Below, piece by piece: positions 6,886 through 56,142 of a stretch of 56,142 nucleotides of DNA. The stretch is from positions 1 through 56,142 of the forward strand of contig JAHJSU010000052.1 in the NCBI GenBank assembly GCA_018829985.1. Reading direction: 5' to 3'. The notes beneath the pieces are model-generated. The model was not told the origin of the DNA, did no database searches, and saw only the letters and a program-made list of their open reading frames with translations. The stretch's first letter is position 1. Each line of letters opens with the position of its first letter. Made by a program: the position numbers and the translations under genes. The stretch comes from Elusimicrobiota bacterium. Its GTDB lineage: Bacteria > Elusimicrobiota > Elusimicrobia > Elusimicrobiales > UBA9959.

Positions 6886-7047
6886 GATATCGGTGGATAT
6901 TGGTAACTACTCAGGTTCACAGTTCAGGGGTTCAACGGTTCAGAGGTTGAAAAACGTCTATGCAAAGGATAACCGTGAACCCTGAACCGTGAACCTCCGA
7001 CAACCTGAGTAGTTACGGATATTGGTGGATATTAGATATTGGCGGAT
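6886..7047. repeat. composite element: GGTGGATATT direct word repeats flanking a GTAACTACTCAGG / CCTGAGTAGTTAC-bounded hairpin (core 6903-7016) with GGTTCARGG arms
   Basis: Read directly. The 13-nt inverted termini are at 6903 and 7004-7016, and the arms are ttcacagttcaggggttcaacggttcagagg / accgtgaaccctgaaccgtgaacctcc. Lies in the argF-cysE divergent spacer. Confidence 0.85.
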
Positions 7048-7067
7048 GAGGAACAAGGATCCTTCTC

Positions 7068-7691
7068 ATGAACATCATTGAAGACATAAAAACGGTGTTT
7101 GCCAAAGACCCGGCCGCGAGGGGGATTATTGAGGTGTTATTCTGCTATCCCGGCCTGCACGCGGTGTGGCTGCACAGGCTGGCGCACGGGCTTTGGAAGC
7201 TCGGCCTTCGCCTGCCCGCCAGGCTCTTGTCCCAGCTCGGCCGCGCCATGACCGGCATAGAGATACACCCGGGCGTCACGATAGGCAGAAGGTTCTTTAT
7301 AGACCACGGCATGGGCGTGGTAATAGGCGAGACCGCTGAAATAGGCGACGATGTGCTTATGTACCAGGGCGTAGTGCTGGGCGGCACCAGCCTTGAGAAA
7401 AAGAAAAGGCATCCCACCATAGGCTCCGGCGCGGTCATAGGGGCGGGAGCCATAGTGCTGGGCGCCATCCATATCGGCGAGCGTTCGCGCATAGGCGCCG
7501 GCTCGGTGGTCTTGAAGGATGTGCCGTGCGACACCACGGTTTTCGGCGTGCCGGCCAAGCCCGGCCACGGCGGAGCCACCGCCGCGTCCCAGCTGGACCA
7601 CGATAAGGTGGACGATTTTTACGGCGAAGAATTGAAGCTGCTTTGGAAAGAGATAGAGTGCCTGAAAAAAACGGCGGGCGGAAATAAATGA
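7068..7691 (+). CDS. cysE: serine O-acetyltransferase
   Basis: N-terminal [24 protein letters not shown] and [11 protein letters not shown], plus left-handed hexapeptide repeats. Confidence 0.9.
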
Positions 7692-7852
7692 AATTCGCGC
7701 GCGACATCACGGAACTGATAGGCAATACTCCGCTGGTCAGAATCAACAGGGTGGCCGCAAGCCGGGCCCTTGTGCCGGCCAAAAAAGCCTATGGCCTAAA
7801 GCATACGGCGTATGGCAATTTTATGATTATCATTCCGGTGAATTTTCTATGA
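7688..7852 (+). pseudogene. cysK: cysteine synthase (CysK/CysM) N-terminal remnant, 54 codons
   Basis: ATG overlaps the cysE stop (ATGA). [22 protein letters not shown] matches the conserved CysK N-terminus (IGNTPLVRLNR). The sequence then diverges before the PLP-lysine region and terminates in an ATGA overlap with anmK. Confidence 0.5.
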
Positions 7853-8982
7853 AAAGGAACAAAATAATAAAAATTATAGGCCTGATGTCCGGCACTTCGG
7901 CGGACGGGTTGTCCCTCGCGCTTTGCGCGCTTCGCCCGGCGGAGCGCAGGCTGGCGGTCCTCGCCCATAAAACCTATCCCTACGGCGCGGGACTGCAAAA
8001 ACGCATCATAGGCGCCAAAAACATGCGCGCGCCGGAGCTTTCGGCGCTTGATTTTGAATTAGGCGGGCTCTGGGCGGATATGGTAAGGCGGTTTTGCCGG
8101 GAATATAAAATCGCGTATAAGAGCGTGGCCGTTATCGGCTCGCACGGCCAGACCGTTTGCCATAGACCGGGAAAAAACGGGCATACGCTCCAGCTAGGCG
8201 AAGCCGCGTTCATAGCGGAGGAAACGGGCAGGCCCGTTGTAACCGATTTCAGGCCTTCCGACATGGCCGCCGGCGGGCAGGGCGCCCCGCTTATACCTTT
8301 TATGGACGAATATCTTTTCGGCGGGGGGAAGCCGATAGCTCTTCAAAACATAGGCGGCGTGGGTAATATCGCTTTTGTGGGCCGGGGGGGTCTGACCTTT
8401 GGTTTTGACACGGGCCCGGGGAATTCCCTGATGGACACGGCCGCGGGCATGTTCTCGGACGGAAAAAAAGCTTTTGACGCGGATGGCCGCTGGGCCGCCG
8501 CCGGTAAAATAGATTATGCCGGGGTTATAGAGCTCCTTAAACATCCTTTCTTCGCTTTAAAGCCGCCCAAATCGCTGGACCGCTCGGAATTCTCGGGCCC
8601 TTTTCTTAAAAAGCATTTCGGGAACCGGTTCAATACGAATAATAAATATGATATCCTGGCCACGCTTAATTATTTCACCGCCGTAAGCGTCGCTCTTGCT
8701 TTCCAGAGGTTCGCCCCGGTCCGGACAACGGAGCTTATAGTGAGCGGCGGGGGGGCTTTGAACCCGGTCCTGATGCGCAATATCGCCGGCGTTCTTGAGG
8801 GAGCGCGCGTAAGGAGCATCGCCGAACTGGGCATCCATCCCCTGGCCAAGGAACCCGCCTGCTTCGCCCTGCTTGCCTGGCTTGCCGTGAACGGAAAAAC
8901 CAACAACTGTCCTTCCGCCACCGGCGCCCGCGGCCCCCGCGTTCTGGGAAAAATAATTTCAGCCGCCCCGCCGGAAGATTAA
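7849..8982 (+). CDS. anmK: anhydro-N-acetylmuramic acid kinase
   Basis: GLMSGTSADGL N-terminal motif and a 377-aa length typical of AnmK. Confidence 0.88.
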   Translation: MKRNKIIKIIGLMSGTSADGLSLALCALRPAERRLAVLAHKTYPYGAGLQKRIIGAKNMRAPELSALDFELGGLWADMVRRFCREYKIAYKSVAVIGSHGQTVCHRPGKNGHTLQLGEAAFIAEETGRPVVTDFRPSDMAAGGQGAPLIPFMDEYLFGGGKPIALQNIGGVGNIAFVGRGGLTFGFDTGPGNSLMDTAAGMFSDGKKAFDADGRWAAAGKIDYAGVIELLKHPFFALKPPKSLDRSEFSGPFLKKHFGNRFNTNNKYDILATLNYFTAVSVALAFQRFAPVRTTELIVSGGGALNPVLMRNIAGVLEGARVRSIAELGIHPLAKEPACFALLAWLAVNGKTNNCPSATGARGPRVLGKIISAAPPED

Positions 8983-9127
8983 CCCGGAAAGCGCTATTAC
9001 CATTTGTAGCCGGTTATATAATTGGCCGGGGCTGTAGGCGGGTTCACTTTGCGGGGGCCGGGTCGTCCAGCGCGGCCGCCCTTATTCGATACTAACCCAC
9101 TTGGCCTGCCTGCTGAATTTCCAGTGT

Positions 9128-9215
9128 TTCCCGCCAAACAGTCCGGCGGGTCCGCCGAGCAGTGTGGCGGAAAACAGCCGGCGGGGAAACGGGCAAGCGG
9201 GTCCGCCTTCGTCGG
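9128..9215. repeat. short array of CCCGCC-N9-GGCGGG / TCCGCC-N9-GGCGGA mini-hairpins
   Basis: cccgccaaacagtccggcgggtccgccgagcagtgtggcggaaaacagccggcgggg is nearly identical over ~55 nt (2-3 differences by eye) to 20246-20300. Confidence 0.8.
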
Positions 9216-9514
9216 AAAGCCGGCCCCTAAAACGTTGTTATATGAATACGCCTGCGGCCCGCCGGACGAAGACTGCCAGCTGGACCCGCGGGTAGACTTA
9301 TATGAAGTCATAGAACCCGCCCCGGCTGACTGCCCCCCCTAAGAATTATCCAACGCAAGATGAGCATGAAACCCGCTTTGGCTTGAAAAGAGCGCGTATT
9401 CCGTCCATAATCTGTAGCCATGACTCCATATTATGGCGGAGGTGCGCTGTACAGCGTTGATTCCCGCCGCGGAGCCTAGGGCCTGCCGCCGGCCTATGGC
9501 GCTGTCGGCGGCCA

Positions 9515-10405
9515 TCAGCTCTTCTCCGCGGTCAGCGCTTCGAAGCCGGAAATGACGTCGAAGAGTTCCGCGTCTATGCCGTTCTGGCGCAAACGATGGA
9601 ACGTCCCGTTAAGGCTCTCCAGCAGTTCGTCGATGTTTTTGTCGGCGCGCTGCATCGCCGCCAGGCGGCTCGCGTTCTCGCTCGCCAGGGATTCGGCGCA
9701 CGCCCGGAAGATAGAGACAAAAAGGTATTCGCGGATGAGCGCCCCCAGGACCGCGGCGCCGCCGCCCATGACCTCGGGCAGGTTTCCCTTCGGCCAGGAA
9801 AGTCCGGCCGCCTTGCTGCGCCAGGCCTCGTCCAACGGCAGCAGCCGCCGGCTGACGGGCGCATAAACCGCCCCGGGCGAGGGACGGTTGTAGAAGAGAT
9901 GGAATTCGGCGGCTTCACCCCGGCCGCGGCTCATCCCGCTCTCAACAAGGAGCTGCCCTACGAGCGGGGTAATAGCCTTGACGGAGTTCGGCACCGCGAA
10001 GAGCCCCGCCGGCGGCAGCCCCGCATCCGCCAAATGCGCATGAACGCGCTCACCGACGGCCCAGACCCGGGGGCCGGGCAGGGGCGCCAGCGCATGCGCC
10101 GCATAATCGGCCACTACATCATTAAACCGGCCCACCAGCCCCTGGTCCGAACCGAACACGACCGCGTTGATCGCGCCAGCGGCTCTTTTCCTTTTCCGCT
10201 GCGCGGTCGGGAACGCCGGCCCGCTTTCGCGCAGACATGCGCCCAACCCCAGTTCCACCGCGCGGTAGTAGCCGGCCAGCGCGCGCACCGAGTTTTCGTA
10301 TTGTACGATACTCGAAGCGGCCAGGGCTTTCATAGTGCGGACTACGGATTGAAGATCCCCGGCGCTGTTGATCTTCCGGCGCAGACCCGCCGTAGTGTCG
10401 CTCAC
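9515..10405 (-). CDS. atpG: N-type F1 ATPase gamma subunit
   Basis: 296 aa, last gene of the operon. C-terminal helix [25 protein letters not shown] is gamma-like. Confidence 0.8.
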
Positions 10406-11955
10406 GGCCTCTCCCCGGGTTCAGGCCCGGGCTGGAAGCGGGCAAGAGCTTTGCGGGCGATTCCGATAATGGTTTCACGATCCTCCTCGCTCAATTTTTC
10501 GGCGGTATCCAGCCGCTCCAGCGCCTCCGCGGGGATCTCCTCCGCCGCCGAACGCAGGGCGCTTTCGGCGTCCGTCATCCGGTCAAGCGGTACGCCGTCG
10601 AACAGTCCCGCGATTAGCGCCAGCAGCACGGCGATCTGCGCGGGCACGGACACCGGGGCGGATTCCGGCTGTTTCAGGCAGGCGCGGAGCCGCCGGCCGT
10701 GCCCGATGATCCTGCGGGTGTCTTCATCCAGGCGGGCGCCGAACCGTGAAAAGGTCTCGAGTTCCTCGAACTGCGCATAGGTGAGCTTGAGGTCGCCCGC
10801 CACCGCGCGGTAGGCCGCGCGCTGCGCCTTGCCGCCGACGCGCGAGACGGATTTTCCGACGTCGACCGCGGGCAGCACGCCCAATTCGAACAGCGTCGGC
10901 GAAAGATAGATCTGGCCATCCGTGATGGAGATCAGGTTGGTCGGAATATAGGCGGAAATATTTTGCGCTTCGGTTTCGATTATGGGCAGCGCGGTAAGGG
11001 AGCCCCCGCCGAGTTCCTTACGCAAATGCGTCGCGCGTTCGAGCAGCCGCGAGTGGATATAAAAAATATCGCCGGGAAACGCTTCGCGGCCGGGCGGCCG
11101 GCGCAGCAAGAGGGAAAGTTCGCGATAGGCGCGCGCGTGCTGGGTGAGGTCGTCGTAAACAATAAGCACGTCCCGGCCCGCTTCCATAAAATACTCCGCG
11201 ATGCTGGTGGCCGCGTAAGGAGCGATATAAGCAAGCCCCGGCGGGTCGTCGCCCTCGGTCACCACAACGACCGTGTACTCCATCGCGCCCTGTTCCCGCA
11301 GGGTCGCCGCCACCTTCGCCACGGAGGACGCGCGCTGGCCGATGGCGCAATAAACGCACAGCACATTCCGGCCGCGCTGGTTGAGGATGGCGTCGACGGC
11401 AATGGCGGTCTTGCCGGTCTGGCGGTCGCCGAGGATCAGCTCGCGCTGGCCGCGGCCGACGGGAATAAGCGCGTCGATCACTTTGAGGCCGGTCTGGAGA
11501 GGCGCCGTGACGGGCGCGCGGTCCATGATGGGCGCGGCGGGGCGTTCGATGGGCAGGCGCTGAGCGGAGACCACCGGCCCGCCGCCGTCCAGCGGCCGGC
11601 CGAGCGGGTTAATTACGCGCCCCAGCAGCCCGTCGCCCACGGCCACGTCCATAACCCTGCCCGTGCGGCGGACTTCGGCTCCCGCGCGGAGCTTCCAGTA
11701 TTCGCCGAGCAGAACCACGCCGATCTCATCGGCGTCCACGTTGAACGCAATGCCCTGCACCTCTCCGGGAAACGTCAACAATTCGTCGAAGCCCGCGCCG
11801 GGAAGCCCCGACACCTTGGCGATGCCGGTGGCGATACTGGTGATTGTGCCCACCTCCCGCGGCGTCAGTCGCGGCGTAAAGGCTTCCCGCGCCCGGGTTA
11901 CTGCGGCAAACGCGCCGTCAAAAACGTTTTGGAGGCTTTCAGGTTCCATACTCAT
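10402..11955 (-). CDS. atpA: N-type F1 ATPase alpha subunit
   Basis: GDRQTGKTA Walker A, and alpha-type signature around [33 protein letters not shown]. Confidence 0.93.
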
Positions 11956-12734
11956 CGGCTATGCGCGGCGGGTTCATCCTTCTTTTCCAGAAGTTCTTCC
12001 ACGCCCTTTTCCAGCTCCGCCAGATAATCCGCGATGCTCCACGCCAACTTTTGGCCGGTCGTGCTCAGTTCGATGCCGCCGACCAGGTCCGGCGCGGTCT
12101 CGAACCGGACGCGGATCCCGGCCGGGAAGGTTTCGTCGAGCGCGTTCTGTATCGCCGCGCGCTGCTCCGCGGGCAGGTCGAACGCGCTGCGCACGAGCGC
12201 CGGTTCGGGCGCCGTCTTCAGCGCCCCGGCGAAGCCCGTTTTCGCCCGGCCGTCCAGCTCCCGCAACCGGCGGATGAACACCCCGCCCAGGCGTTCCTCC
12301 AGACTCACCCCGGCGAGCTCCGTCAGCGCCTTTCGCGCGACGGCAAACACCTCCCGCTGTGTCAGGCGCCTGATCGCCTGATGCAGGCTGCGTTCTTCAT
12401 TTCTCAGTATTTCCCGCCGCCTGGCGCCCAGGGCATCGGCCGCCTTCCGGGCTTCGTCGAGAAGCCGCCGGCGTCCGGCTTCTGCCTCTTCCGCGGCCTT
12501 GTTCAGAAGCGCGGCGCGCTGCCGGTCAAACTCAGAATTTTTTCGCCGGAACTCGTCGCCCTCCTTTTGGGCTTCGGCCTTTTTCTCGTCGGCGCCCGCG
12601 AGTTCCGCGGCGATCCGCTTCTCCCGCGCATCTATGGCGCGCAGGACAGGCTTGTAAAGGAAGCGCTTCATCAGCCACACCAGGATGAGAAAGTTGAGCG
12701 CCTGTGCCCCGATCGTGAACCAATCTATTATCAT
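11952..12734 (-). CDS. atpF: N-type Fo ATPase b subunit (long form, no separate delta gene)
   Basis: N-terminal TM helix ([11 protein letters not shown]) followed by a long charged coiled coil. 260 aa. Confidence 0.8.
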
Positions 12735-12738
12735 AGGT

Positions 12739-13020
12739 TTATTTCCCCGCGGCCTGGGCGATGACGTGGTTCCAGAACGGGTTGGCGAAGATGAGGATCA
12801 TTGAGACCACAAAGCAGTAGATGGCCGTGGACTCGATCATCGCCAGGCCCACGAACAAGGTCCGGGTGATGGTGGCGGAGGCGTCAGGCTGCTGCGCCAG
12901 CGAACTCAGCGCCGTAGAAACCGCCTTCCCTTCCGCAAACGCGGGCCCCATAGTGCCGAAACCGGTGGTGATGCCGGCAGTAACGATTGATGCCACCGCG
13001 ATAATAGCCGTGTTATCCAT
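12739..13020 (-). CDS. atpE: N-type Fo ATPase c subunit
   Basis: 93-aa two-helix hairpin. The second helix is GLAMIESTAIYCF (E-S-T-x-x-Y). Confidence 0.88.
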   Translation of the reverse strand: MDNTAIIAVASIVTAGITTGFGTMGPAFAEGKAVSTALSSLAQQPDASATITRTLFVGLAMIESTAIYCFVVSMILIFANPFWNHVIAQAAGK

Positions 13021-13051
13021 AATATCTCCTTTTAGTGTCGTAGCTGCCGCT

Positions 13052-13747
13052 TCACTGTTTTGCAGCGGCTCCAGGCCCGGGCCTGGGAACCCGCGTGGCG
13101 GACGCGATATAAACCGCCGCCAGGATGCTGAAGATGTAGGCCTGCACCATGCCGGTGAGCAGGCCGAGCCCCGTCATGACGAGCGGGAAGATGAAGGGCG
13201 CAATAGCGAGCAGGATGCCGATGATCATCGCCCCGCTCATCATGTTGCCGAACAAACGGACCGCCAGGGCCAGCGTGCGCGAAATTTCGCTGATGAGGTT
13301 GAACGGCAGCATGATGAACGTCGGCCGCACATAGGACTCCAGGTAGCCGCCCACCCCCTGTTCCCTGATGCCGAAGAACGGAACGGCCACAAAAACGCAC
13401 AGCGCGAGCGCGGCCGTGGTAGAGAGCGAGCCGGTCGGCGGCTCGTAGCCGGGAATTACGGTGGCCAGGCTGGCCAAGGCGACGAACAGGAAAAGCGTGC
13501 CCAGAAAGCCGAGATATTTCCGCGGCTGGTTCAGGCCCACCTCTTCAAGCTGTTTCTCGATGCCGGTAACTACGATTTCCAGGAGGTTCTGCCAGCGGGA
13601 ACGTTCCAGACCCGTGGAAAGTTTACGCGTGATGAGTTTTGAACCGGCGGCCAGCACGAACATCAGTACCCATGTGAACACGATGGTGGCGTTGAGTTTG
13701 AAAACCCCGTGCTGCCAGAAAACGATCTCGTCGGGACTAAGGCGCAT
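13052..13747 (-). CDS. atpB: N-type Fo ATPase a subunit
   Basis: Polytopic, with the conserved Arg motif LAVRLFGNMMSG. Confidence 0.88.
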   Translation of the reverse strand: MRLSPDEIVFWQHGVFKLNATIVFTWVLMFVLAAGSKLITRKLSTGLERSRWQNLLEIVVTGIEKQLEEVGLNQPRKYLGFLGTLFLFVALASLATVIPGYEPPTGSLSTTAALALCVFVAVPFFGIREQGVGGYLESYVRPTFIMLPFNLISEISRTLALAVRLFGNMMSGAMIIGILLAIAPFIFPLVMTGLGLLTGMVQAYIFSILAAVYIASATRVPRPGPGAAAKQ

Positions 13748-14057
13748 GGCCGGCCTCCTGTGCCGTGCAGGCGGGCTTTTCCGCCGCCGGGATAAGCCGC
13801 GTAACGATTACACGCGCGAGGATAAAGCCGAGGAGGCATACCAGCAGCCGCTCCCAATGGCCGCGCGCGACAAAATAAAAACCGGCCAGGGTAAGGCCCG
13901 TTCGCACCAGCAGGCTGCCAAAAAACCAGAGCGCCGGCCGTCCGGACCCGACGCCCTTGCGAACCGTCCACCAAAGGCCGGCGAAGAACATCGCGCCCAG
14001 TAAAACACCCGCCAGCAGGACCGGGATCAGGCTCAGAGTTTCATTCATCGTTATCAT
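13737..14057 (-). CDS. atpR: N-ATPase accessory membrane protein AtpR
   Basis: About 100 aa, three TM segments, GLWWTVRKG motif, positioned between atpQ and atpB as in described N-ATPase operons. Confidence 0.7.
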   Translation of the reverse strand: MITMNETLSLIPVLLAGVLLGAMFFAGLWWTVRKGVGSGRPALWFFGSLLVRTGLTLAGFYFVARGHWERLLVCLLGFILARVIVTRLIPAAEKPACTAQEAGHAP

Positions 14058-14371
14058 CCTGTTCCTCCCGTATTTCCGTGTCTTCTTTGGTCACCCAGTT
14101 CCAGGCATTCAGACAGCCGACGCCCAGGCCGGTGACCAGCAGCATCAGCGTCCAGGAATGACTTCCCGGATAATGCCGGTCCAGCCAGATCCCGAGCGCC
14201 GCGCCGAGCAGGGTCGGAACCACCACCGACCAGCCGATAAGCCCCATCATGCCCAGGCCGAACCAGACACCCCGCGTGACATGGCGCTGCGCGCGGAGCT
14301 TGCGCGCGGCCTTTGCGCCGACCTCCCGGCCCAACGGGGTCCGCTCTTTCGCGCTCCTGGGCTCCGGTCTC

Positions 14372-14379
<8 letters not shown>
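14041..14379 (-). CDS. atpQ: N-ATPase accessory membrane protein AtpQ (AtpI/AtpZ-like)
   Basis: Two TM segments, with GWSVVVPTLLGAALGIWLDR. The track ORF starts at 14394. ATG 14379 gives an 8-nt overlap with the atpC stop and is preferred. Confidence 0.7.
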
Positions 14380-16188
<1,809 letters not shown>

Positions 16189-16261
16189 TCATGCCAAGGT
16201 GAAACATAGCAAGCTCATTTAACATTATCATATCAAATGTCTTCGTGACGGCGCTCTTTTA

Positions 16262-16450
16262 TTTGTAGGCAACATAAGGCGATTATCGTGAGTTGTCGTG
16301 AGTCGCCCCCTAAAATCCCATTCCGAATTTTGCCGGAACCGCGCGTTAAAGGTTATAATAACAAAAAAACGGCGGGAGAGTCAGTCTAACGGGGTCTAAC
16401 GGGGTTTTTGGCAATGCTGCCGCTGCCGGGCGGTGGGAATTGCCTGGCGG
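16262..16450 (-). promoter_or_regulatory. conserved upstream module, copy 1 (upstream of N-ATPase operon)
   Basis: The reverse complement aligns block by block with 20078-20199 and 23569-23737, including TGtTATTATAACCTTTAACGCGCGGTTCCGGCAAAA and the distal CGCCTTATGTTGCCTACA. Confidence 0.7.
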
Positions 16451-16710
16451 GATAGGCACGCCGCGCATTGCCGGGTTTGTGTCTGAATTTATCCCAGGTA
16501 TTTTAGACATAAATTCTCTTGTTCCCAAAGTTAGTCAACTAACTACGCTACGTCCCCTACCCCCCTTTGACCATGATATTTCTACTTTTCTGGATCATGA
16601 CACTTTAACTTTTTCGCGACAAGCTACTTTTTAAAAGCTACTTTTTAAAATTGCGATTCAATGCGAATTTTGATAGAATCGGGGTTAAGGATGTTTTACG
16701 GTGGGGTATT

Positions 16711-17133
16711 ATGTCATTGCTTAATATTTTCAAGCCGCGGGAACCGCTGGTGATGCTTGTGGATGATGACCCGATGCTGCTGGAAATGTATGAAGCATAT
16801 TTAGGAGCTTTGAATTGTAAGTCAATTAAGGTGTTTGACGGCAAAGACGCGCTGGCAATGGTGGAGAGACATAAACCGCAGCTTATTCTGCTGGACATCA
16901 TGATGCAGGGGATCACCGGCTTGCAGATCCTTGAAAGTCTGAAGCTCAAATCCTCCACAAAAAATATTCCCGTGCTGATGATAACAGGCGAACGGAAGAT
17001 CGGGGATCTTGAAACCGCTTTCAAACTGGGCGCGGCGGATTATATGATTAAACCGGTTGAACTTGCGCCCTTCGAACAAAAGATCAAAACGCTGCTCTCT
17101 TCAGCCGGGTATTCCTTCCCCGGCGTTAAATAG
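16711..17133 (+). CDS. single-domain response regulator (CheY-like receiver)
   Basis: VMLVDDDPMLLEMY, LLDIMMQGITG and IKPV motifs. ATG 16711 is preferred over the TTG at 16651. Confidence 0.8.
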   Translation: MSLLNIFKPREPLVMLVDDDPMLLEMYEAYLGALNCKSIKVFDGKDALAMVERHKPQLILLDIMMQGITGLQILESLKLKSSTKNIPVLMITGERKIGDLETAFKLGAADYMIKPVELAPFEQKIKTLLSSAGYSFPGVK

Positions 17134-17360
17134 TGTTGTGTCCCGTAAATCCCTTTACAATGACTGGGGTCGAAAGCGGTTTCGTTCAATGCAGATTATC
17201 GCAAGTTGAGCTGTTAAAATAGTCCGGATTTTTTGCCGGCTGCGGTCATAATGGGTATAATATCAAAAAAAGCGGCCGCCGGGCGGGAGAAAAACCCAGG
17301 TCAAGGCATGGTGGCGGAGGGAATTCAGCCGGCCGGGGCGGGCGCGTCTATGTTTCTTCT

Positions 17361-18596: not shown

Positions 18597-18599
18597 AAT

Positions 18600-44174: not shown

Positions 44175-44243
44175 ATCAGAGGTCAGAGGTAAGAGGTCAG
44201 AAAACAGCTTAAATTTTACATCTTACATCTTACATCTACCCTG
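44175..44243. repeat. CAGAGGTMAGAGG 5' arm / CATCTTA 3' arm, poorly pairing word element
   Basis: About 2 mismatches per 12 nt. Fills the spacer between 44169 and 44246. Confidence 0.6.
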
Positions 44244-45654: not shown

Positions 45655-45900
45655 GCGAAAAGTCTAAAGTGGAGAGTAAATAGAACAAAAGTCTAAAGTA
45701 AATAAAACGGAAGTCTAAAGTAATAACGCAAGTCGAGGGTGGAGCGAAGCGACACAATTCAACTGTATCCAACAGGTGGAGAGTCTAAAGTCTAAAGATT
45801 ATAAGGAAATCCGCATCATACTCTACACTTTAGACTCTAGACTTTCGACTATCGACCCTGGACTCTACACTTTCGACTCCCGGCTTTAGACTCCGGACTT
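45655..45900. repeat. GTCTAAAG-word element (copy 2, extended, opposite orientation of loop)
   Basis: The purine arm (45661-45800) is interrupted by about 50 nt, the loop is GATTATAAGGAAATCCGCATCAT, and the pyrimidine arm spans 45815-45900. Confidence 0.85.
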
Positions 45901-48494: not shown

Positions 48495-48607
48495 CTGCTC
48501 AAGTTATTAGGTTCAGGGTTCAAGGTTATTTTTTCCCACGCTCTTCTTGTGTCCTCTGGTTTTCAACCGTTGAACCGCTGAACCGTGAACCCGGAACCAG
48601 TAGTTAC
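48495..48607. repeat. GGTTCARGG-word hairpin with degenerate GTAAC-type termini
   Basis: The loop ttttcccacgctcttcttgtgtcctctggttttcaac is homologous to the loop at 50036-50078. The right terminus is ccagtagttac. Confidence 0.8.
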
Positions 48608-48701: not shown

Positions 48702-49337
48702 ATGAAACCCATAGTGGTGCTCGCTACGCGCAATAAGAATAAAGTAAGAGAGATATTGGCTATACTGGCGGAGAGCGCCATAGATTTTAAAACTTTGGAC
48801 GATTTTCCGGGAGCCCCGGAAGTGATAGAAGGCGCGGACACACTTGAAGAGAACGCCGCTAAAAAAGCAAAAAGCGCGGCGCTTTACTGCGGGCGCTGGG
48901 CGCTGGCCGACGATACGGGGCTGGAGGTGGATTCTTTGGGCGGAAAGCCGGGGGTGTTGTCGGCCAGATATGCGGGACCGGGCAGTTCCTACGCCGATAA
49001 TAACCGAAAACTTCTTGCCGCGCTGGACGGAGTGCCGCATGAAAAAAGGACCGCGCGTTTCCGCTGCGCCGTGGCGCTTGCCTCCGCCGGCGGTTCCACC
49101 GTCATCATGGAGGGGTGCCTTGAAGGGTTTATAACCCGGGAACCGTCAGGCTCCCGGGGCTTCGGCTATGACCCTGTTTTTGCCGTGGCGGCCTCCAGCG
49201 CGGACGCGGGGCGCGGGCAGGGCCCGGTGCGCACGCTGGCGGAACTTTCCCCCCTGGAAAAGAATGCCGTGAGCCATCGCGCGGCGGCGCTCAAAAAGAT
49301 TATCCCGTATTTACGGCGGCTTAAGGCCGAAGTCTAA
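48702..49337 (+). CDS. rdgB: non-canonical purine NTP pyrophosphatase (RdgB/HAM1)
   Basis: VLATRNKNKVREI, DDTGLEVD, ARYAG and GFGYDPVF motifs. Confidence 0.9.
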   Translation: MKPIVVLATRNKNKVREILAILAESAIDFKTLDDFPGAPEVIEGADTLEENAAKKAKSAALYCGRWALADDTGLEVDSLGGKPGVLSARYAGPGSSYADNNRKLLAALDGVPHEKRTARFRCAVALASAGGSTVIMEGCLEGFITREPSGSRGFGYDPVFAVAASSADAGRGQGPVRTLAELSPLEKNAVSHRAAALKKIIPYLRRLKAEV

Positions 49338-49447
49338 AGTCGAAAGTCGAAAGTCGAGAGTCTAGAGTCTAAAGTGCAGGGTGGAATCAGATTTCCTTAA
49401 TCTTTAGCCTTTAGACTTCCGTTCTGTTTACTTTAGACTTCCTTACT
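49330..49447. repeat. GTCTAAAG/GTCGAAAG-word hairpin (copy 3)
   Basis: Supplies the rdgB stop codon (gtcTAA) and ends 4 nt before the ATG at 49451. Confidence 0.85.
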
Positions 49448-49450
49448 CTT

Positions 49451-49990
49451 ATGATCACGGTTTTAAAGTCTTTGTGGAATAATTTTTCATATTTCCTGGC
49501 CGCGCTGGCAGTGGCGCTGGCGGTTTATTTTTTTTCATACGAACGACCCAGGGCCCTTCCCCCGGTTTTAAACCGGCCCGTCCTCGAAGACTTCGCTCCC
49601 GGCGGCTATACCGTAAGGTCCGGCCTCATGGCGGCGTCGGCAAATCTAGCCGTCTATAAAAGCAAGATCGAAAAAAAGCTGGAATCCAGGTTCATGAAGT
49701 CCTCTTTTCCGGCGTCGGACGCGGGCGCCATAGGGAAGCTGGCCCGAGACCTTGAACCGCTCCTGTTGAAGATGCGCCGTAATGTCTCCGCCGCCGATCA
49801 CATTTCCCGGCTTGAGGCCGCCGAGGCCGAGCGCAGGGCGCTTGTGCTTGAAAACGCCAAACTGAAATCGCTGATTAAAAACGCCGGGCCTTCGTCGGGC
49901 CGTGTCCTGAGACAGTTGGCGGCCGTGGAAGAAAGCCTCTACAAGCTCCAGCTCCAGCTTGAAGGCCTGGCCGCGCTGGAAGCGCAATAA
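49451..49990 (+). CDS. membrane-anchored coiled-coil hypothetical protein
   Basis: 179-aa ORF with an N-terminal TM helix (FSYFLAALAVALAVYFF) and a C-terminal heptad-like region. No SD seen. Confidence 0.5.
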   Translation: MITVLKSLWNNFSYFLAALAVALAVYFFSYERPRALPPVLNRPVLEDFAPGGYTVRSGLMAASANLAVYKSKIEKKLESRFMKSSFPASDAGAIGKLARDLEPLLLKMRRNVSAADHISRLEAAEAERRALVLENAKLKSLIKNAGPSSGRVLRQLAAVEESLYKLQLQLEGLAALEAQ

Positions 49991-49992
49991 GC

Positions 49993-50174
49993 GTAACTGC
50001 TCAGGTTATCAGGTTCAAGGTTCGCGGTTCAAGGTTATCTTTTCCACGATCTTCTTGTGTCCCCGGATTCCCAACTGTTGAACCACTTCCGCCGGAGGCG
50101 GATCCCCGCCAATACAGCCCGGCGGGCGCGGCGCCGGGCTGTTTGGCGGAAAACCGCTGAACCTGAGTAGTTAC
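49993..50174. repeat. GTAACTGCTCAGG / CCTGAGTAGTTAC-bounded GGTTCARGG hairpin carrying a ~71-nt nested insertion of CCGCC mini-hairpins (50085-50155)
   Basis: Alignment by eye with 48495-48607 places the insertion between gttgaacc and gctgaacc. Confidence 0.85.
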
Positions 50175-52351: not shown

Positions 52352-52433
52352 AAGGGTAGAGGGGCTAGGGTAGAGGGGCTAGGGTAGAGGGGAGAGGTGC
52401 GGAAACAAGAAACTCCTTACCCTACACCCTGCT
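52352..52433. repeat. GGGTAGAGGGGCTA-word element, asymmetric (long 5' arm, short 3' arm)
   Basis: The 5' arm is three units of gggtagaggggcta(g). The loop contains aaactcctta, and the right end ccctgctgttat is shared with 34431-34445. Confidence 0.8.
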
Positions 52434-52466: not shown

Positions 52467-53630
52467 ATGAGACTTAAATTAATGTTCTTATGCGCGGCAG
52501 CTTTTTTTCTGACCTGGCGGGCGCGGGCCGAAGGAGCGGGAAAAGCCGAGGAAATGCAGAATATCGTGGTGAAACCGGGCGACACGCTCTGGAGCATCGC
52601 CAACACGTATCTTAAAAACCCCAAACGGTGGAACGAACTCCTGAAATACAACACTCTGCCGGCGGCGGATCCGTCCATAGCTTTACCCGGCATGGCGCTT
52701 AAGGTGCCGGCAAAACTTATAAAAGAGCAGTACCGCGCGGCCAAGCTGGTTTCTTTCGTGAACGAAGTCCTTTTAAGGAAAAGCGGCGCGGCCGACTGGA
52801 AAAATGTAGCCGCGCAGATGGATCTTTTTAAAAACGATACGCTGCGCACCAGGACGGACGCCCGGGCCGAAGTCAGGTTTTACACCAAAGAGATATTGAA
52901 TCTCTATCCCAACTCCGTGGTTATATTGCGGCCGCCCGATAAAAACGCGGACGTGGAGCTTATGGCCGGCGGAATGCGCGGATTGCGCGCCAAAGTGATA
53001 ACCGCTACCAACGTAAGGATCACGCCCAAAACCAGGGATACCGAGTTCGACGCCAGAATGAAAGCGGATATGACCACCCAGGTGCAGGTCCACAAGGGCC
53101 GCGTAGGCGTGGAAGCCCAGGGCAAAACGGTGGAGGTGCTTGAAGGTTTCGCTTCAGTGATTAAGCTGGATATGACGCCTTCCCAGCCCATACCGCTCCC
53201 GCCCATGGCTGATTTTGAAAAAGGGAGCGGCCCCGCGCTTGCCAAGGCCAGCGGTCCGCGGATGAAGCTGGACGATAATATCATTTCGCTTAAGCAGACA
53301 ATTCCCAAGGCCGCCGTTAGGGCCCCCGCTGCGCCGGCCCTTAATAAAAATATCAAGACCGGCGACATGAACGACCAGAGTATAGATGCCGGCAAGATAA
53401 TGATAACGGTGGCGAATCCCGTGCAGTCTTATCATCTCCAGCTGGCGCGGAACCAGAATTTTGCCGATCTGGTCCTGGATAAGACTTATGACGCTTTTGA
53501 TACCATAAATTTAAACGAACTGCTTCCCCCGGGCGCCTACTGGCTGCGGGTCTCATATGTGGACCTGCTTGGTTTTGAGGGGAAGTTTAACGCCCCAAGG
53601 CAGATCACCATCGGCCGCGGCAGACAGTAG
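52467..53630 (+). CDS. secreted LysM-domain protein
   Basis: AAGGGAGG SD, signal peptide, LysM VVKPGDTLWSIANTYLKNPKRWNELLKYN, followed by a beta-rich FecR-like region. Confidence 0.75.
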   Translation: MRLKLMFLCAAAFFLTWRARAEGAGKAEEMQNIVVKPGDTLWSIANTYLKNPKRWNELLKYNTLPAADPSIALPGMALKVPAKLIKEQYRAAKLVSFVNEVLLRKSGAADWKNVAAQMDLFKNDTLRTRTDARAEVRFYTKEILNLYPNSVVILRPPDKNADVELMAGGMRGLRAKVITATNVRITPKTRDTEFDARMKADMTTQVQVHKGRVGVEAQGKTVEVLEGFASVIKLDMTPSQPIPLPPMADFEKGSGPALAKASGPRMKLDDNIISLKQTIPKAAVRAPAAPALNKNIKTGDMNDQSIDAGKIMITVANPVQSYHLQLARNQNFADLVLDKTYDAFDTINLNELLPPGAYWLRVSYVDLLGFEGKFNAPRQITIGRGRQ

Positions 53631-53768
53631 GTAGTAGGTGGTAATGGGAGAGTAGATGGTAGGTAGTAGGTGGTAGGTGGGGAAGGAAATACAGATCTCA
53701 TTAACCTACCTCCTACCTACTACCTACTACCTACTACCTACTACCTACTACCTACTACCTACTACCCC
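53626..53768. repeat. GTAGGTAGTAGG 5' arm / (CCTACTA)n 3' arm hairpin
   Basis: The 5' arm starts in the LysM stop codon. The 3' arm contains 7 perfect CCTACTA units at 53716-53764, plus one imperfect unit. Confidence 0.9.
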
Positions 53769-53820: not shown

Positions 53821-53954
53821 CAGGAGTAGTATTCATGAGGGAGGCTTAGTTCGCTTCTGTCAGTTGTTTGTTGCTGTTCGGCTGTGCGGTGTTCGGAGGG
53901 AGCACGAAAAGGCAGTAGGAGAGGCGCAATCTTTTCGTGCTCTCTTTTGCTTTT
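53821..53954 (+). ncRNA. candidate small RNA or terminated leader (~135 nt), family unknown
   Basis: Bounded by the promoter above and an intrinsic-terminator-like hairpin. No match to any RNA family I can recognise by eye. Confidence 0.3.
53900..53954 (+). terminator. intrinsic terminator-like hairpin
   Basis: A 12-bp stem gagcacgaaaag / cttttcgtgctc, a 19-nt loop, then tcttttgctttt. Confidence 0.55.
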
Positions 53955-53967
53955 GGCCGTCCGCTAA

Positions 53968-54210
53968 CCCGAAAAATTCAGGAGAATTTTCCGGGAAGGA
54001 TAAAGGATTAGGGATAAAGGCTAAAGGACGGAATATTTTTTTGTTTTGCAGTGTTTTTCCTTTATCCTTCAGCCTTTATCCTTCAGCCTTCCGAAAATTG
54101 CCGTGGATTTTCTACAGGTTTCTTAATGCGATACGACTTCAACTGCCTGCCCGCCAAATTGCAAAACAAACTGAAGACATGTAATGCTTGGCAGGCGGGC
54201 AATTTTCGGG
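53968..54210. repeat. three-module composite: CCCGAAAAATTC-AGGA-GAATTTTCCGGG, GGATAAAGG-word hairpin (53996-54090), CCGAAAATTGCC..GGGCAATTTTCGG
   Basis: Read directly. Same architecture as 34834-35023 and 40174-40402. Confidence 0.8.
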
Positions 54211-54248
54211 TTTAATCCCGCCCGTATTTAAAATATAATCTACTTACT

Positions 54249-55910
54249 ATGTCCAAAAGGGTTTCCCTCGCGGCCCTGTGCCTTTGCCTGCTTTCGGCGC
54301 CCTGCTTTGCCACCTCCGGCCTCCCGCCAGGTTCGGTCACCGTCTGGGACAGGATAATGAAGGAACAGAGCTTTATCAACCTGCGCAAAGGCTATATGCT
54401 GATGGGGTCCGAGAAATACGCCGAAGCCGCCAACGAATTTTTAAAAGCCATCTCGGAAAATCCCAAAGAGCCCTACGCGCATATTCTCTACGGCTCCAGC
54501 CTGTACTGGCTGGGCGAGCCGGACCGGGCCATGGATGAGTTCAACGCCGCGGCCGGCCTTGATCCCCAAAACGCGGTCGCTTATCAGCTGATGGGCATAG
54601 TCCACGCCTGGAAGGGGGAACTTCCGGCGGCGCTTGAAAAATTTAAAAAGGCCGAAGAACTGGCAAACTTTAAAAGCGACGTCAAGATGAATATCGGTTC
54701 CATCTATAATTCGCTGGGCGATAGGGGCAGAGCTTTATCCTATTTCAGGGAGGCGGTCCGGCTTGAACCTGAAAACCCTCTTTACCGTTTCCAATTGGGC
54801 CTTCTTTATTCAAGGCTCGGGCGCTGCGCGGAGGCGAAAAATTCTTTTAAAAAAGCGATTTCTAAGTTCAGGGATTACGAGGACGCGATGCTTGAACTGG
54901 CGGTCCTGGAGGAAAAAGACGGCAAGGTGAAAGAAGCCTTAAGCCTTTACAAAAAAGCCCTGGAGCTCAAACCGGGCGACAACGTGGCGCGCTTCAGGCT
55001 GGCCTGCCTCTTTTATAAGACCGGCAATAACGACGGGCTTAAAAAACTTTTGAACGAGGCTTTTTTGCTTACACCTTCCAACGACAGGGGCGGCATCTCC
55101 ATAAGTCTTTCCTACGCCGGGGCGCCGGACAGCGGGAAGACGCCCGACGGCCGGCGCTCGGATAAGCCCGCATCTCTGGAGAACGCCATAAAGAAGATCC
55201 CGGCGGATGAGGACATAAATATCCAGGCGGAGATAATTTCGGTTCCGAAGACCCCTGTGGTCATGCCTTCGGGCGAAGGGCCGGCGGGCTTGAGGTCCGG
55301 CCTTGAAAGAATTTTCAGCCGGCGCCAGGTCTCTTATTTAAAACGCGAATACTCATTGCCCGCCTCGGATTTCAGGAACAGGGCGGACCGGGCCGCCCGG
55401 ATAGCCGCGGAGATAGACGCCGCCGTCAAAGCCGCGGGCAAAGAGAACGATACGCGCATGTCTTTGAGCATCGAAACTAAAAAAGCTTCCGGAACTTCCG
55501 CCGCCTCCGTCTCCGGCCGGAACGCCAAGGTGGTCTTCAAGCCCCGGGATGTCGGAAACGACATGGGGCTTTGGGTGATGGGGGACAACTGGCTTGAAAA
55601 CGTGGAAGAGGCGCTTGATGAGCTTTCGTTGAGCCGGGCAGCCGGCCCCCGGAGTTCCGGCGGGTTTTCCGCGTTGACGGGGTTAGGCAGGCTTATCCTC
55701 GGCGAACCGGACGCCGCCCTTGAAGAGTTTCAAAAGACCGGACCCGAACTGGGCGCGGCCGGCGAACTGGGGAGCTGCGCTGCCTGGGTTGAGAAAGGTT
55801 CCGAGGAAAAAGCTCTGGCCGCGTGCCTTGAAGCGCTTAAAAAAGAGCCGTCGAACAAGACCGCTTTGGCCAATAAGAAGTGGCTGGAACGCGCAGCAGA
55901 CGCAGATTAA
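54249..55910 (+). CDS. secreted TPR-repeat protein
   Basis: Signal peptide LCLCLLSAPCFA, and multiple TPR units (AYQLMGIVHAWKGELPAALEKFKKA and others). Confidence 0.75.
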   Translation: MSKRVSLAALCLCLLSAPCFATSGLPPGSVTVWDRIMKEQSFINLRKGYMLMGSEKYAEAANEFLKAISENPKEPYAHILYGSSLYWLGEPDRAMDEFNAAAGLDPQNAVAYQLMGIVHAWKGELPAALEKFKKAEELANFKSDVKMNIGSIYNSLGDRGRALSYFREAVRLEPENPLYRFQLGLLYSRLGRCAEAKNSFKKAISKFRDYEDAMLELAVLEEKDGKVKEALSLYKKALELKPGDNVARFRLACLFYKTGNNDGLKKLLNEAFLLTPSNDRGGISISLSYAGAPDSGKTPDGRRSDKPASLENAIKKIPADEDINIQAEIISVPKTPVVMPSGEGPAGLRSGLERIFSRRQVSYLKREYSLPASDFRNRADRAARIAAEIDAAVKAAGKENDTRMSLSIETKKASGTSAASVSGRNAKVVFKPRDVGNDMGLWVMGDNWLENVEEALDELSLSRAAGPRSSGGFSALTGLGRLILGEPDAALEEFQKTGPELGAAGELGSCAAWVEKGSEEKALAACLEALKKEPSNKTALANKKWLERAADAD

Positions 55911-56142
55911 CACAGATACAAAAGCAGACGAACACTGATAAAATATGCGATAATTCGGCCTGTTTAATCTGTGTTTTATGGTAACTACTCAGCAGCAACA
56001 TTGAACGCAGATGACGCAGATGAATATGATGGACGCAGATCATGTTTAATCATAAAAATCGTTACTACTCAGCCACAAAGTCACAAAGACACGAAAGAAA
56101 TCAGACAACAAACCGTTTGATCCATAAACTTTCTTTGTGCCT
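55895..56142. repeat. string of elements running to the window edge: CAGATTAACACAG hairpin overlapping the TPR stop, GTAACTACTCAG-led GCAGATGA element, GTTACTACTCAG-led CACAAAG element (truncated)
   Basis: 55981-56065 is the reverse-complement paralogue of 28440-28545. The last element is cut by the window end. Confidence 0.7.

Follow-up and report, generated by a model that had tools for sequence, protein, structure and literature searches.

The intergenic spacers of the window (the whole stretch of Elusimicrobiota DNA analysed here, 56,142 nt) have probably been colonised by dispersed non-coding palindromic repeats, whose arms are short tandem arrays of a 7-8-nt word and which are partly transposon-derived and grow by slippage. 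Between 26 and 56 kb, imperfect hairpins with such arms occupy 22 of the roughly 25 spacers. A single-stem alignment scan returned 27 hairpins scoring at least 28, nearly all of them intergenic, compared with 0-2 in each of five dinucleotide shuffles. An earlier note on this DNA had listed 24 hairpin loci. When folded against shuffles, 20 of them reached z scores of -2.3 or below, down to -9.1; the locus 6886-7047, which was tested both whole and as its core 6903-7016, is counted apart from these. The loci 30150-30203 (z -1.1), 43229-43336 (z -1.6) and 52352-52433 (z -0.1) fold no better than shuffles, and 55895-56142 is a composite of three hairpins, not one. Both arms carry period-7 or period-8 arrays at most of the listed loci; the element at 26207-26311 has no word arrays. 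The statement that almost every spacer is occupied holds for 26-56 kb but not beyond it: a single element lies between 1 and 26 kb, the 9-25 kb insertion has no word hairpins, and the 9 kb to the left of the window contain no elements. The hairpin-bearing region of the window shows no enrichment of classic terminator-like sites.

The elements fall into two classes. Class A comprises MITEs of the IS66 family (ISBst12 group) with the TIR GTAACTRCTCAG, an 8-bp target duplication and word arrays within the arms. This TIR was found 9 times (1.2 expected) and equals the published TIR of ISDge4, GTAACTGCTCAGCA; ISDge4 likewise makes an 8-bp direct repeat. A subset of the elements thus matches a described repeat family. 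The MITE at 6903-7016 (z -8.7) has inner GGTTCAG word arms, the TIR GTAACTACTCAG, which matches ISDge4, and the 8-bp duplication GGATATTG at 6895-6902 and 7017-7024. Around this MITE, words resembling GGTGGATATT form a direct array (6886-7047). GGTTCAG words are also found in the IS66/ISBst12-type MITE at 49993-50174 (z -8.5), together with the TIRs GTAACTGCTCAG and GTAACTACTCAG, the duplication AATAAG and a nested GC-rich palindrome (50098-50157). Its loop is common to a GGTTCAG-family MITE with a degenerate left TIR in the divergent spacer at 48495-48607 (z -2.4). A further IS66/ISBst12-type MITE (28398-28545; z -4.6) has the TIRs GTAACTGCTCA and GTAATTACTCAG, the inner words AACGCTGAT and TCATCYGCG, and an imperfect 8-bp duplication (CCTTAAAT and CCTTAATC), and adjoins a retained classic hairpin at 28564-28595. 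The element at 26207-26311 (z -6.1) is a plain MITE showing no polarity, with the TIR GTAACAGTTTAG and a perfect 8-bp duplication, GCAGTTAG, that takes in the upstream gene's stop codon. The composite at 55895-56142, cut by the window end, contains a CAGACGCAGAT-word hairpin, two GTAACTACTCAG-type TIRs, and CGCAGATGA and CACAAAG words; its closing TIR lies just past the window in an ENA contig.

Class B is the majority, with families including AGGGTAG, AAGGATA, AGTCTAA, GGTCAGA and AAAGGCAC, and neither a TIR nor a target duplication was found in its elements. Several class B families have in common an apex that includes the SD/anti-SD palindrome AAGGAGCTCCTT, for which the earlier remark on Shine-Dalgarno-like and anti-Shine-Dalgarno strings was accurate as to sequence. 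An AGGGTAG hairpin with the apex GTTATAAGGAACTCCTTA (34358-34438; z -7.7) begins 7 nt past the HIT gene stop and ends 19 nt ahead of the rpsU start. AAGGATA/AAGGCTA words form the hairpin that fills the convergent ompA|obg spacer (26920-27010; z -3.9) and another at 40222-40338 (z -2.7), which is flanked by REP-like AACCCGAAAATTGCAG units and is 87% identical over 127 nt to a copy at 53984-54108. That copy belongs to an AAGGATA/AAGGCTG hairpin (53966-54120; core 53996-54090, z -4.8), preceded by the REP-like unit AACCCGAAAAATTC and placed in a 618-nt spacer that is not a real gene. The AGTCTAA family is represented by a hairpin with AGCAGATTCCC within its apex (37113-37196; z -3.0), a composite element with the apex GATTATAAGGAAATCC (45655-45900; z -3.8), in which a 22-nt repeat that includes the word makes up the 5' side and the 3' arm has 8.6 heptamers, and an AGTCTAA/AGTCGAA hairpin (49330-49447; z -2.8), whose first word gives the Ham1 stop codon and whose 3' arm stops 3 nt short of the next start codon. 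A GGTCAGA/AAGTCAG hairpin is located at 37920-38028 (z -8.0). The long AAAGGCAC-family hairpin with the apex GGAGCTCCTTATAAC (42438-42642; z -4.5) touches the dcd stop codon, and gene callers extend a TPR ORF through it.

Other word hairpins are found in the rplU-rpmA spacer (AGTGATT; 28922-29007; z -4.8), between dnaG and rpoD (AGTTGATA family; 31936-32020; z -5.5) and between rpsU and dnaG (GGTAGAG/GGTGAAG; 33918-34001; z -6.9). A hairpin of AGGCAACT and AATCGCCT arrays (34896-34969; z -2.9) adjoins a classic double terminator at 34835-34895. The GTAGGTA hairpin at 53626-53768 (z -8.8), whose first word gives the upstream stop codon, has an 8.7-copy, 98% perfect array as its 3' arm and a degenerate 5' arm. 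The arms of the hairpin at 44175-44243 (z -2.9), which occupies the entire c11|sqs2 spacer, have diverged (TCAGAGG vs ACATCTT), and the orthologous site in L156 has a related one-armed G-rich array. As for the three weak loci, the convergent msc|rpoD spacer holds a hairpin of AAAGCAAG and TCTTACTC arrays (30141-30203) that is orthologous to L001 11717-11795, a AAGGGTTTT-family hairpin (43229-43337) overlaps the sqs2 stop codon, and 52352-52433 is a mostly one-armed AGGGTAGAGGGGCT array of 2.9 perfect copies, whose complementary 3' side is short. As claimed before, elements lie directly against stop and start codons or overlap them. They do not occur alike in convergent, tandem and divergent spacers: TIR-less elements are confined to tandem or convergent spacers, and both divergent spacers are occupied by TIR-bearing MITEs.

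The arms sort into about 12 word families, which recur within the window, in other Elusimicrobia genomes and in metagenomes. The same words and apexes were found again inside the window as well as in L030, L003, L037 and L001, and metagenome contigs match the elements at 80-91% identity over 65-107 nt with flanks lacking homology. The element at 43229-43337, for example, shares 87% identity over 107 nt with L119 5353-5459 between unrelated flanks, and L030, at other positions, and metagenome contigs contain near-identical copies of that at 34358-34438. The apex TTATAAGGARCTCC is common to three word families, and TTATAAGGA occurs exactly four times in the window, three times at apexes. Different families have 8-mers in common in 28 pairs (13 expected), consistent with the earlier observation that loop cores are related across loci. 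Among 86 exact apex matches, 12 lie inside word hairpins (two in one contig) of three word families, and in metagenomes the apex accompanies three word families. The common apex could also reflect function instead of shared descent. Whole units, arms and apex together, are shown to have spread between loci and genomes. Arms are therefore not locus-specific, and the premise fails from which selection on structure or arm-to-arm templating had been deduced. Because whole elements recur elsewhere with unrelated flanks, complementarity was probably inherited with the palindromic unit and not kept by selection. No enzyme or target rule accounts for the spread of class B.

Orthologous spacers are empty or short in 59 of 63, 45 of 46 and 50 of 54 relatives. 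Of 46 relatives, 45 lack a hairpin between rplU and rpmA, the dnaG-rpoD spacer of relatives is about 30 nt long and hairpin-free, and the L001 site corresponding to 34358-34438 is empty. These comparisons show that this lineage acquired the elements; DNA that entered it recently has none of them. The arms have continued to change. The sole difference between two assemblies over 20.5 kb is a 14-nt indel in one arm; an independent assembly has two more heptamers (14 nt) in the 5' arm of the element at 49330-49447. One orthologous locus has 4, 3 or 5 heptamers, varying in the 3' arm only, and consensus words differ between the two arms of one element. These comparisons show each arm gaining and losing heptamers independently after insertion, which is most simply read as replication slippage.

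The polarity reported earlier was confirmed. Among the G:C pairs of strictly periodic hairpins, 152 have their G on the 5' arm and 28 have it on the 3' arm, and the G/A-rich arm is the 5' arm, opposite a C/T-rich 3' arm, in 15 of 15 elements. By the G>C measure it was replicated in 17 of 19 elements of independent metagenome contigs, the other two being A-rich. Polarity is better captured by G>C than by purine content, since R is about 0.5 in the GGTTCAG family. In relatives, one family of TIR-bearing MITEs is polarised the other way. An A-5'/T-3' bias is also seen in the classic hairpins of relatives, but the GC stem of classic terminators has no G/C polarity, so the strong G-5'/C-3' bias of the word hairpins is not simply inherited from terminators. 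The fixed polarity may represent the A-tract/T-tract polarity of the clade's bidirectional terminators, extended along the stem; the 3' arm at the end of transcripts from either side would then be rich in pyrimidines and hybridise weakly.

An A-tract/GC-stem/T-tract hairpin stands where the window has a word hairpin in 47 of 55 relatives at msc|rpoD and in 27 of 38 at ompA|obg, and the rpsU-dnaG spacer of relatives has a short GC-rich hairpin. An element in L030 is flanked by AAAAGC and GCTTTT. From their position, the elements may have terminator or stabiliser activity. They would be tolerated, and in convergent spacers would have replaced the classic terminator, by acting as long bidirectional transcript-end hairpins. 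Some elements reach the next start codon (c11|sqs2, ham1|hyp179) or sit within conserved operons (dnaG-rpoD, rplU-rpmA), where efficient termination is impossible, and that at 37920-38028 lies downstream of a separate intact classic hairpin (38075-38141) and is not needed as a terminator.

Stability, terminator positions, conserved apexes and tight placement on stop and start codons would also be expected if the hairpins were functional RNAs (terminators, processing sites or translational regulators) kept at each locus by selection on pairing, with compensatory change in the arms. We consider this unlikely, as the orthologous spacers of close relatives are empty, whole elements recur between unrelated flanks, the two arms vary separately in copy number and differ in consensus word, and at three listed loci the fold is not better than that of shuffles. 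A hand tally of about 14 G-U vs 19 A-C mismatches, the strand check proposed earlier, does not favour the transcribed strand, and an Rfam search gave no matching family. A low probability is likewise assigned to class B being REPIN-like, i.e., palindromic doublets moved in trans by a RAYT, an IS200/IS605-type HUH or an IS110-type enzyme, with the recognition site setting the polarity. Such enzymes leave no duplication, and class B has neither TIR nor duplication; the elements are palindromic, intergenic and in discrete families, GTAG occurs inside some words (AGGGTAG, GTAGGTA), and the copies flanked by AACCCGAAAATTGCAG units resemble a BIME-like mosaic. However, no such transposase is encoded within the approximately 65 kb of this genome examined, most words lack GTAG, and tandem-heptamer arms are not a REP feature.

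It is very unlikely that the hairpins were made de novo at each locus, by adding G-rich repeats to both 3' break ends and joining them or by fold-back (template-switch) copying of an arm. Either route would automatically yield the strand-symmetric, invariant polarity observed, and would suit the missing target duplication, the unequal arm lengths and the one-armed arrays (52352; L139, L156). Independent local synthesis would not, however, give apexes and arms conserved jointly across loci and genomes; arm change by slippage after insertion and the TIR-bearing family of opposite polarity also argue against it. The hairpins are almost certainly not artefacts of short-read metagenome assembly. 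Logan contigs and an ENA contig do end at elements, where assemblers struggle, but independent assemblies from different samples are 100% identical over contigs spanning or entering elements, and related elements occur in many unrelated MAGs and metagenomes.

Among known systems, the earlier view that the elements are not CRISPR, ERIC or RPE repeats was upheld. STRR-like repeats had been dismissed too quickly, given the paired heptamer precedent in Xanthomonas. The closest published analogue of the whole architecture is found in Xanthomonas, where a GGGAATC heptamer array is convergently paired and the pairs were reported as 'always convergent'.

The window carries ordinary core genes: obg, rplU-rpmA, rpsU-dnaG-rpoD, rplM-rpsI, dcd and genes for a histidine kinase, TPR proteins and two squalene/phytoene synthases. 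Its RpoD (30203-31912, minus strand) shares 97% identity with that of a groundwater Elusimicrobia MAG and 60-96% identity with those of 75 other Elusimicrobiales loci. The same DNA was independently assembled in the 78-kb ENA contig k141_468844 and in several Logan contigs. After correction of the gene calls, about 25 spacers in 26-56 kb are 40 nt or longer, and 22 of them hold at least one word hairpin, that is, an intergenic imperfect hairpin in which each arm is a tandem array of a 7-8-nt word. The earlier note had placed such hairpins in almost every spacer, which holds for 26-56 kb but not for 1-26 kb, where 6886-7047 is the single element. None was found in the 9.2 kb left of the window. 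Four related Elusimicrobia stretches (L003, L005, L034 and L057) lack the stretch 9000-25000, which in the window separates anmK (7849-8982) from the first squalene/phytoene synthase (25073). Its ATP-synthase operon (high-GC part 9515-16167) has a G+C content of 60-66%, compared with about 53% elsewhere. This stretch is probably a horizontally acquired N-ATPase-like island. No word hairpins were found within it, so the elements are missing from recently acquired DNA. Two tandem repeats inside the island, a 31-nt unit ATTAGCCGCAAAAAAGCGCAAAAAGCGTAA (23780-23844, 2.2 copies) and a 14-nt unit AAGCTACTTTTTAA (16621-16650, 2.1 copies), form no hairpin.

The word hairpins are a real feature of this DNA. 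A single-stem alignment scan identified 27 hairpins scoring at least 28 in the window, nearly all of them intergenic, compared with 0-2 per dinucleotide shuffle (n = 5). Tandem Repeats Finder and an inverted-repeat tool independently recovered period-7 or -8 arrays in both arms. Tandem units of 7 (or 8) nt are present in both arms at most loci, and the elements adjoin stop or start codons. Twenty of the 24 loci previously listed as hairpin spacers with tandem-word arms fold better than their shuffles (z from -2.3 to -9.1), in agreement with that description; 6886-7047 was fold-tested twice, as a whole and as the core 6903-7016. Folds are weak at 30150 (z -1.1), 43229 (z -1.6) and 52352 (z -0.1, essentially one-armed), and the composite 55895-56142 is truncated by the end of the window. 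Because everything folds at 53% G+C, local RNA folding (RNALfold-type, 260-nt window) had no discriminating power and was replaced by the single-stem scan with shuffles. Rfam covariance models at gathering score gave no match in the whole window, and tRNA scans found nothing. CRISPR arrays consist of direct repeats of 23-50 nt with unique spacers of similar length. A CRISPR array was ruled out for the word hairpins, whose units are 7-8 nt long, contiguous and arranged in inverted arrays.

Part of the elements, here termed class A, is already explained. The sequence GTAACTACTCAG occurs nine times in the window at up to two mismatches (1.2 expected) and forms inverted pairs at 6903/7016, 28398/28545 and 49993/50174, each flanked by an 8-bp target duplication. 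Perfect duplications (GGATATTG and GCAGTTAG) and imperfect ones (CCTTAAAT/CCTTAATC and AATAAGC/AATAAGT) were found, and 26207-26311 has a related terminal inverted repeat (TIR) with the perfect duplication GCAGTTAG. The class A TIR, GTAACTRCTCAG(C/G), is essentially identical to the TIRs GTAACTGCTCAGCA and GTGACTACTCAGCA of ISDge4 from Deinococcus geothermalis, a member of the IS66 family (ISBst12 group) that likewise yields an 8-bp direct repeat (PMC12898284). IS66 elements generally have GTAA-led inverted repeats (starting GTAAGCG) and 8-bp repeats. Unlike IS66 insertion sequences, class A copies are 105-182 nt long, carry no transposase and hold tandem word arrays in their inner arms. No transposase gene is encoded in about 65 kb of this genome (window and left flank). 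The GTAACTACTCAG pairs, the duplications and the match to ISDge4 therefore identify class A as ordinary MITEs that belong to a known family and have arms containing word arrays. This assignment is limited to 6903-7016, 28398-28545, 49993-50174, 48495-48607 and the pieces from 55981 onwards, with 26207-26311 joining more loosely. The MITE at 49993-50174 also contains one nested copy of a separate GC-rich repeat family with units of about 36 nt (CCGCCAAACAGTCCGGCGGGTCCGCC...), which forms stable palindromes at 20227-20406, 9131-9170 and 50098-50157.

The majority of the elements belong to class B, in which TIRs and target-site duplications were searched for and none was found. Every element without TIRs is located in a tandem or convergent spacer. 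The arms had been regarded as locus-specific, but the words recur within the window and at other sites in other genomes. In the window, AAGGATA/AAGGCTA is found at 26920, 40231 and 53996, AGTCTAA at 37113, 45655 and 49330, GGTCAGA at 37921 and 44175, AGGGTAG at 34358 and 52352, GGTTCAG at 6886, 48495 and 49993, CGCAGATGA at 28398 and 55981, and CACAAAG/AAAGGCAC at 42438 and 56074. The copies at 40213-40339 and 53984-54108 share 87% identity over 127 nt. Nearly the same element as 34358-34438, with 25 identical apex (hairpin loop core) bases, is present at 15194-15286 of L030, a stretch from another Elusimicrobia genome whose genes are merely about 70-75% identical to those of the window. Elements in metagenome contigs are 80-91% identical to window elements across 65-107 nt and share no homology in the flanks, for example L119 5353-5459 and 43230-43336. 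The occurrence of the same element between unrelated flanks, at other loci and in other genomes, indicates that whole palindromic units are copied between loci and genomes.

Apexes are also shared between families with unlike arms, as the earlier note had proposed. The window contains exactly four copies of TTATAAGGA; three copies are at the apexes of three word families (34389, 42529 and 45799), and the remaining copy serves dcd as its real ribosome-binding site. Apexes of different families have 28 pairs of common 8-mers, compared with 13 in shuffles (none of 300 reaching 28) and 15 expected from random windows (2 of 300 reaching it). The apex core AAGGAGCTCCTT reads as a perfect Shine-Dalgarno (SD)/anti-SD palindrome. 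A scan of metagenome contigs for the apex 17-mer GTTATAAGGARCTCCTT retrieved 86 stretches, mostly chance matches in coding DNA. Twelve matches (two in one contig) lie within word hairpins that have AGGGTAG-type arms, AAAGGCAC arms or, once, a one-armed GTTATGA array, and G-rich words are located 5' of GTTATAAGGARCTCCTT in all twelve. Among the apex-bearing contigs, only L156 was shown to be syntenic with the window, and L144 and L150 share flanks with L156.

The polarity of the arms is uniform. Among hairpins with strict periodicity in both arms, 152 G:C pairs have their G on the 5' arm and 28 have it on the 3' arm, and all 15 strict elements agree, five of them from other genomes. This strict set was used since a looser periodicity threshold (0.5) admitted GC-rich coding sequence of high-GC relatives as false word hairpins. 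Metagenome contigs fetched via the apex motif yielded 19 more word hairpins, of which 17 have more G than C on the 5' arm; the 5' arm of the remaining two is A-rich. The reported invariance is thus real. Its wording in terms of purines is less suitable, as the GGTTCAG family is only 57% purine, and the rule is better put as G>C, usually plus purine richness. A TIR-bearing MITE family in relatives (AGGGGACGCTGATTCCTAAATTCC..., with AGGGGACGCTGATT plus TTCCTAAA words) shows the opposite polarity, its 5' arm words being pyrimidine-rich (L031 7399-7491, L032 3103-3195, L053 2490-2587 and L075 1932-2027). The polarity rule is therefore no physical necessity.

Comparison with other assemblies reveals change in single arms. 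Over 20.5 kb, the window and the ENA assembly of the same population are identical except for an indel of two heptamers (14 nt) in the 5' arm of 49330-49447; across about 44 kb altogether, three or four SNPs and a 176-nt in-gene deletion also separate them. The 176 nt are missing from the window at 141/142 relative to the ENA assembly (L081 9209-9384) and lie inside a DGC-domain gene, and the truncated form of this gene is also present in another sample (L083). Three related metagenome contigs differ at an orthologous locus in the number of RAACCCT units in the 3' arm (4, 3 or 5), and their 5' arm is constant in length. Consensus words often differ between the two arms (AAAGGAT versus AAGGCTA; TCAGAGG versus the complement of ACATCTT), although identity to the own-arm versus the other-arm consensus is a measure with a built-in bias and serves as description only. 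At 53626 and 52352, one arm is a near-perfect array and the other is degenerate. The indel and the differences in copy number and consensus indicate that the arms evolve independently by slippage. The complementarity appears to stem from the origin of the unit and to decay afterwards. Selection at the RNA level on the transcribed strand was also considered; hand-tallied mismatches (about 14 G-U versus 19 A-C) show no bias, so this check, suggested in the earlier note, does not favour the transcribed strand.

Comparison of orthologous spacers showed that in most relatives the sites are empty or short, or hold classic terminators. The rpoD-dnaG, rplU-rpmA and rpsU-HIT spacers are short and hairpin-free in 59 of 63, 45 of 46 and 50 of 54 relatives, respectively. 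L001, a relative with about 90% nucleotide identity, has an empty site opposite 34358-34438. A classic bidirectional terminator (A-tract, GC stem, T-tract) occupies the convergent msc-rpoD spacer in 47 of 55 relatives and the convergent ompA-obg spacer in 27 of 38. Word hairpins are found there instead in the window and, with other words, in a few other genomes. The L030 element sits between AAAAGC and GCTTTT, as though within an old terminator. The AAGCAAG element (30141-30203), common to the window and L001, looks like an in-place expansion of a terminator flank. A terminator consensus scan (compact GC stem plus T-run) identified classic sites at 34846-34885 and 28564-28595 and picked up none of the word hairpins. 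The number of classic terminator-like sites in 40-56 kb is not above that in shuffles. Word hairpins thus resemble bidirectional intrinsic terminators in occupying the same spacers, in their purine-5'/pyrimidine-3' polarity and in the orthologous positions in relatives. They differ in their stems, which are long (20-60 pairs) and AU/GU-rich; a compact GC stem is missing, and usually a T-run is as well. In relatives, the rpoD-dnaG or rpsU-HIT spacer also contains a structured element of about 250 nt starting TTGTCGCACCCCGCGC... (L004 1785-2610, in three tandem copies; L003 8580-8800; L006 9805-10000; L030 7645-7900).

Taken together, the elements are most likely dispersed palindromic repeats with slippage-prone heptamer-array arms, of which some are IS66/ISBst12 MITEs and others are probably moved by another route. 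They accumulate in old core spacers and, judging from the spacer comparison, may be tolerated there as long bidirectional transcript-end hairpins. We infer that their polarity may carry the A-tract/T-tract logic of terminators on along the stem. The purine-rich flanks of the relatives' terminators (AAAAGAAGAG ... CTCTTCTTTT) match the word arms in polarity. The G/C polarity, however, has no counterpart in classic terminator stems, which counts against this reading, and the classic terminator-like hairpins in the window (34835, 38075 and 50098) show no G/C bias. Several elements reach the next start codon or lie inside operons, and therefore many cannot terminate efficiently. Alternatively, the polarity may avoid early exposure of C-rich RNA open to Rho loading, or may keep SD-like words distant from start codons. 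A translational explanation, in which C-poor arms after stops would be stop-rich and G-poor arms before starts would be start-poor, gains weak support from stop triplets (0.058 versus 0.039 per nt). It was rejected, as start triplets go in the wrong direction (0.023 versus 0.032) and stops are absent from the 5' arm of the GGTTCAG family. Two genes, sqs2 (start codon at 44169) and the 179-aa gene hyp179 (start codon at 49451), begin directly after the pyrimidine-rich 3' arm of a hairpin (44167-44175 and 49441-49453); neither gene has a visible SD sequence, and in the 179-aa gene TAAGG lies just 5' of the hairpin base.

A more specific reading, which we consider rather unlikely, is that class B elements are mobile palindromes of a kind not described before, combining a conserved SD:anti-SD apex (TTATAAGGAGCTCCTT) with interchangeable heptamer arms, in which one arm would be templated from the other by fold-back during copying and which would act as U-tract-independent bidirectional terminators or attenuators. 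If true, classic terminators would have been displaced across the core genome in one Elusimicrobia lineage, and G-first polarity would be a functional requirement, possibly for a weak pyrimidine-rich RNA:DNA hybrid or for hiding C-rich Rho-loading sites.

Outside class A, the elements represent a new form of the paired heptamer-array phenomenon that comprises many word families. Among published systems, they come closest to the heptamer simple-sequence repeat (SSR) arrays of Xanthomonas (GGGAATC) and Nostoc (GGGGAYT), whose function is unknown (Rehm et al., 2015; PMC4692102). The Xanthomonas GGGAATC pairs (70 in Xcc and 75 in Xac) are 'always' convergent with one array per strand, and copy number differs between close relatives (PMC4692102). 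Both systems have tandem 7-nt G-rich words in intergenic regions near ORF ends, with a G-rich 5' arm, a C-rich 3' arm and identical polarity. However, each Xanthomonas genome has one dominant word, whereas the window has at least 12 word families. Most window words lack the G-quadruplex potential (at least four G3 tracts) of the Xanthomonas arrays, G3 runs being limited to the AGGGTAG and AAGGGTT types. The window further differs in its conserved apex modules, whole-unit dispersal between genomes, near-saturated spacers and replacement of classic terminators. Cyanobacterial STRRs, other long-unit (heptanucleotide) SSRs and the TAACTGA repeats of Beggiatoaceae share the heptamer unit, the intergenic location near start or stop codons, the lineage-specific abundance and slippage as the proposed cause. 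Unlike word hairpins, these repeats use a small number of fixed words, mostly in direct orientation; Nostoc rarely shows inverted pairing, and so does Beggiatoa, with one case (PMC4679880).

Similarities to REP/BIME/REPIN elements were also observed. Both are intergenic imperfect palindromes in discrete families without target duplication, form mosaics with other small palindromes and lie between convergent or co-directional genes. REP/BIME/REPIN elements act as transcript-end hairpins. Word hairpins differ in lacking the conserved 20-40-nt palindrome led by GTAG/GTGG; their arms are tandem heptamers, and most words have no GTAG. No RAYT (Y1 HUH) gene was seen in the window and left flank, and nothing specific was found in the literature on Elusimicrobia repeats. 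A separate REP-like unit, AACCCGAAAATTGCAG, flanks some word hairpins. The REP-like palindromic unit AACC(C/T)GAAAA(A)TT(G/C)CAG is located at or just after gene ends and forms a BIME-like mosaic with some word hairpins (window 21848, 34832, 35026, 40172, 40404, 53966 and 54212; L001 14885/14959; L006 7220/7251; L004 4363/4398).

In many bacteria, heptamers exceed all other long simple-sequence repeats in over-representation. To our knowledge, their origin and role have been unexplained since the 1990s (STRR), and the 2015 work on Xanthomonas did not change this. The Elusimicrobia lineage described here is extreme in that many word families coexist, slippage is visible between near-identical populations, units move between genomes and word hairpins take the place of classic terminators at defined orthologous sites. 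The existence of one spacer in filled, empty and terminator-bearing forms opens three questions to testing, namely what causes the polarity, how elements without TIRs and target duplications are mobilised, and whether long AU/GU-rich hairpins can substitute for canonical terminators.

The elements also have practical consequences, as they break short-read assemblies, mislead gene callers and supply some stop codons. Independent short-read contigs of the window's own population (L078, L080, L082 and k141_468844) begin or end inside hairpins at 42454, 45702, 54078, 56010 and 6931, indicating that the elements fragment assemblies. The mechanical ORFs 40403-42727 and 53864-54184, and one deposited gene call, cross the hairpins 42438-42642 and 53966-54120. 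The TPR gene probably starts near 42435 in reality, and the 106-aa ORF (53864-54184) is probably no gene. A GAAGGCT heptamer array (4.3 copies, 45486-45515) lies within a clostripain-like gene, and its in-frame translation on the minus strand is PQPSALSLQPSA, just past the N-terminus, so word arrays can enter coding sequence too.
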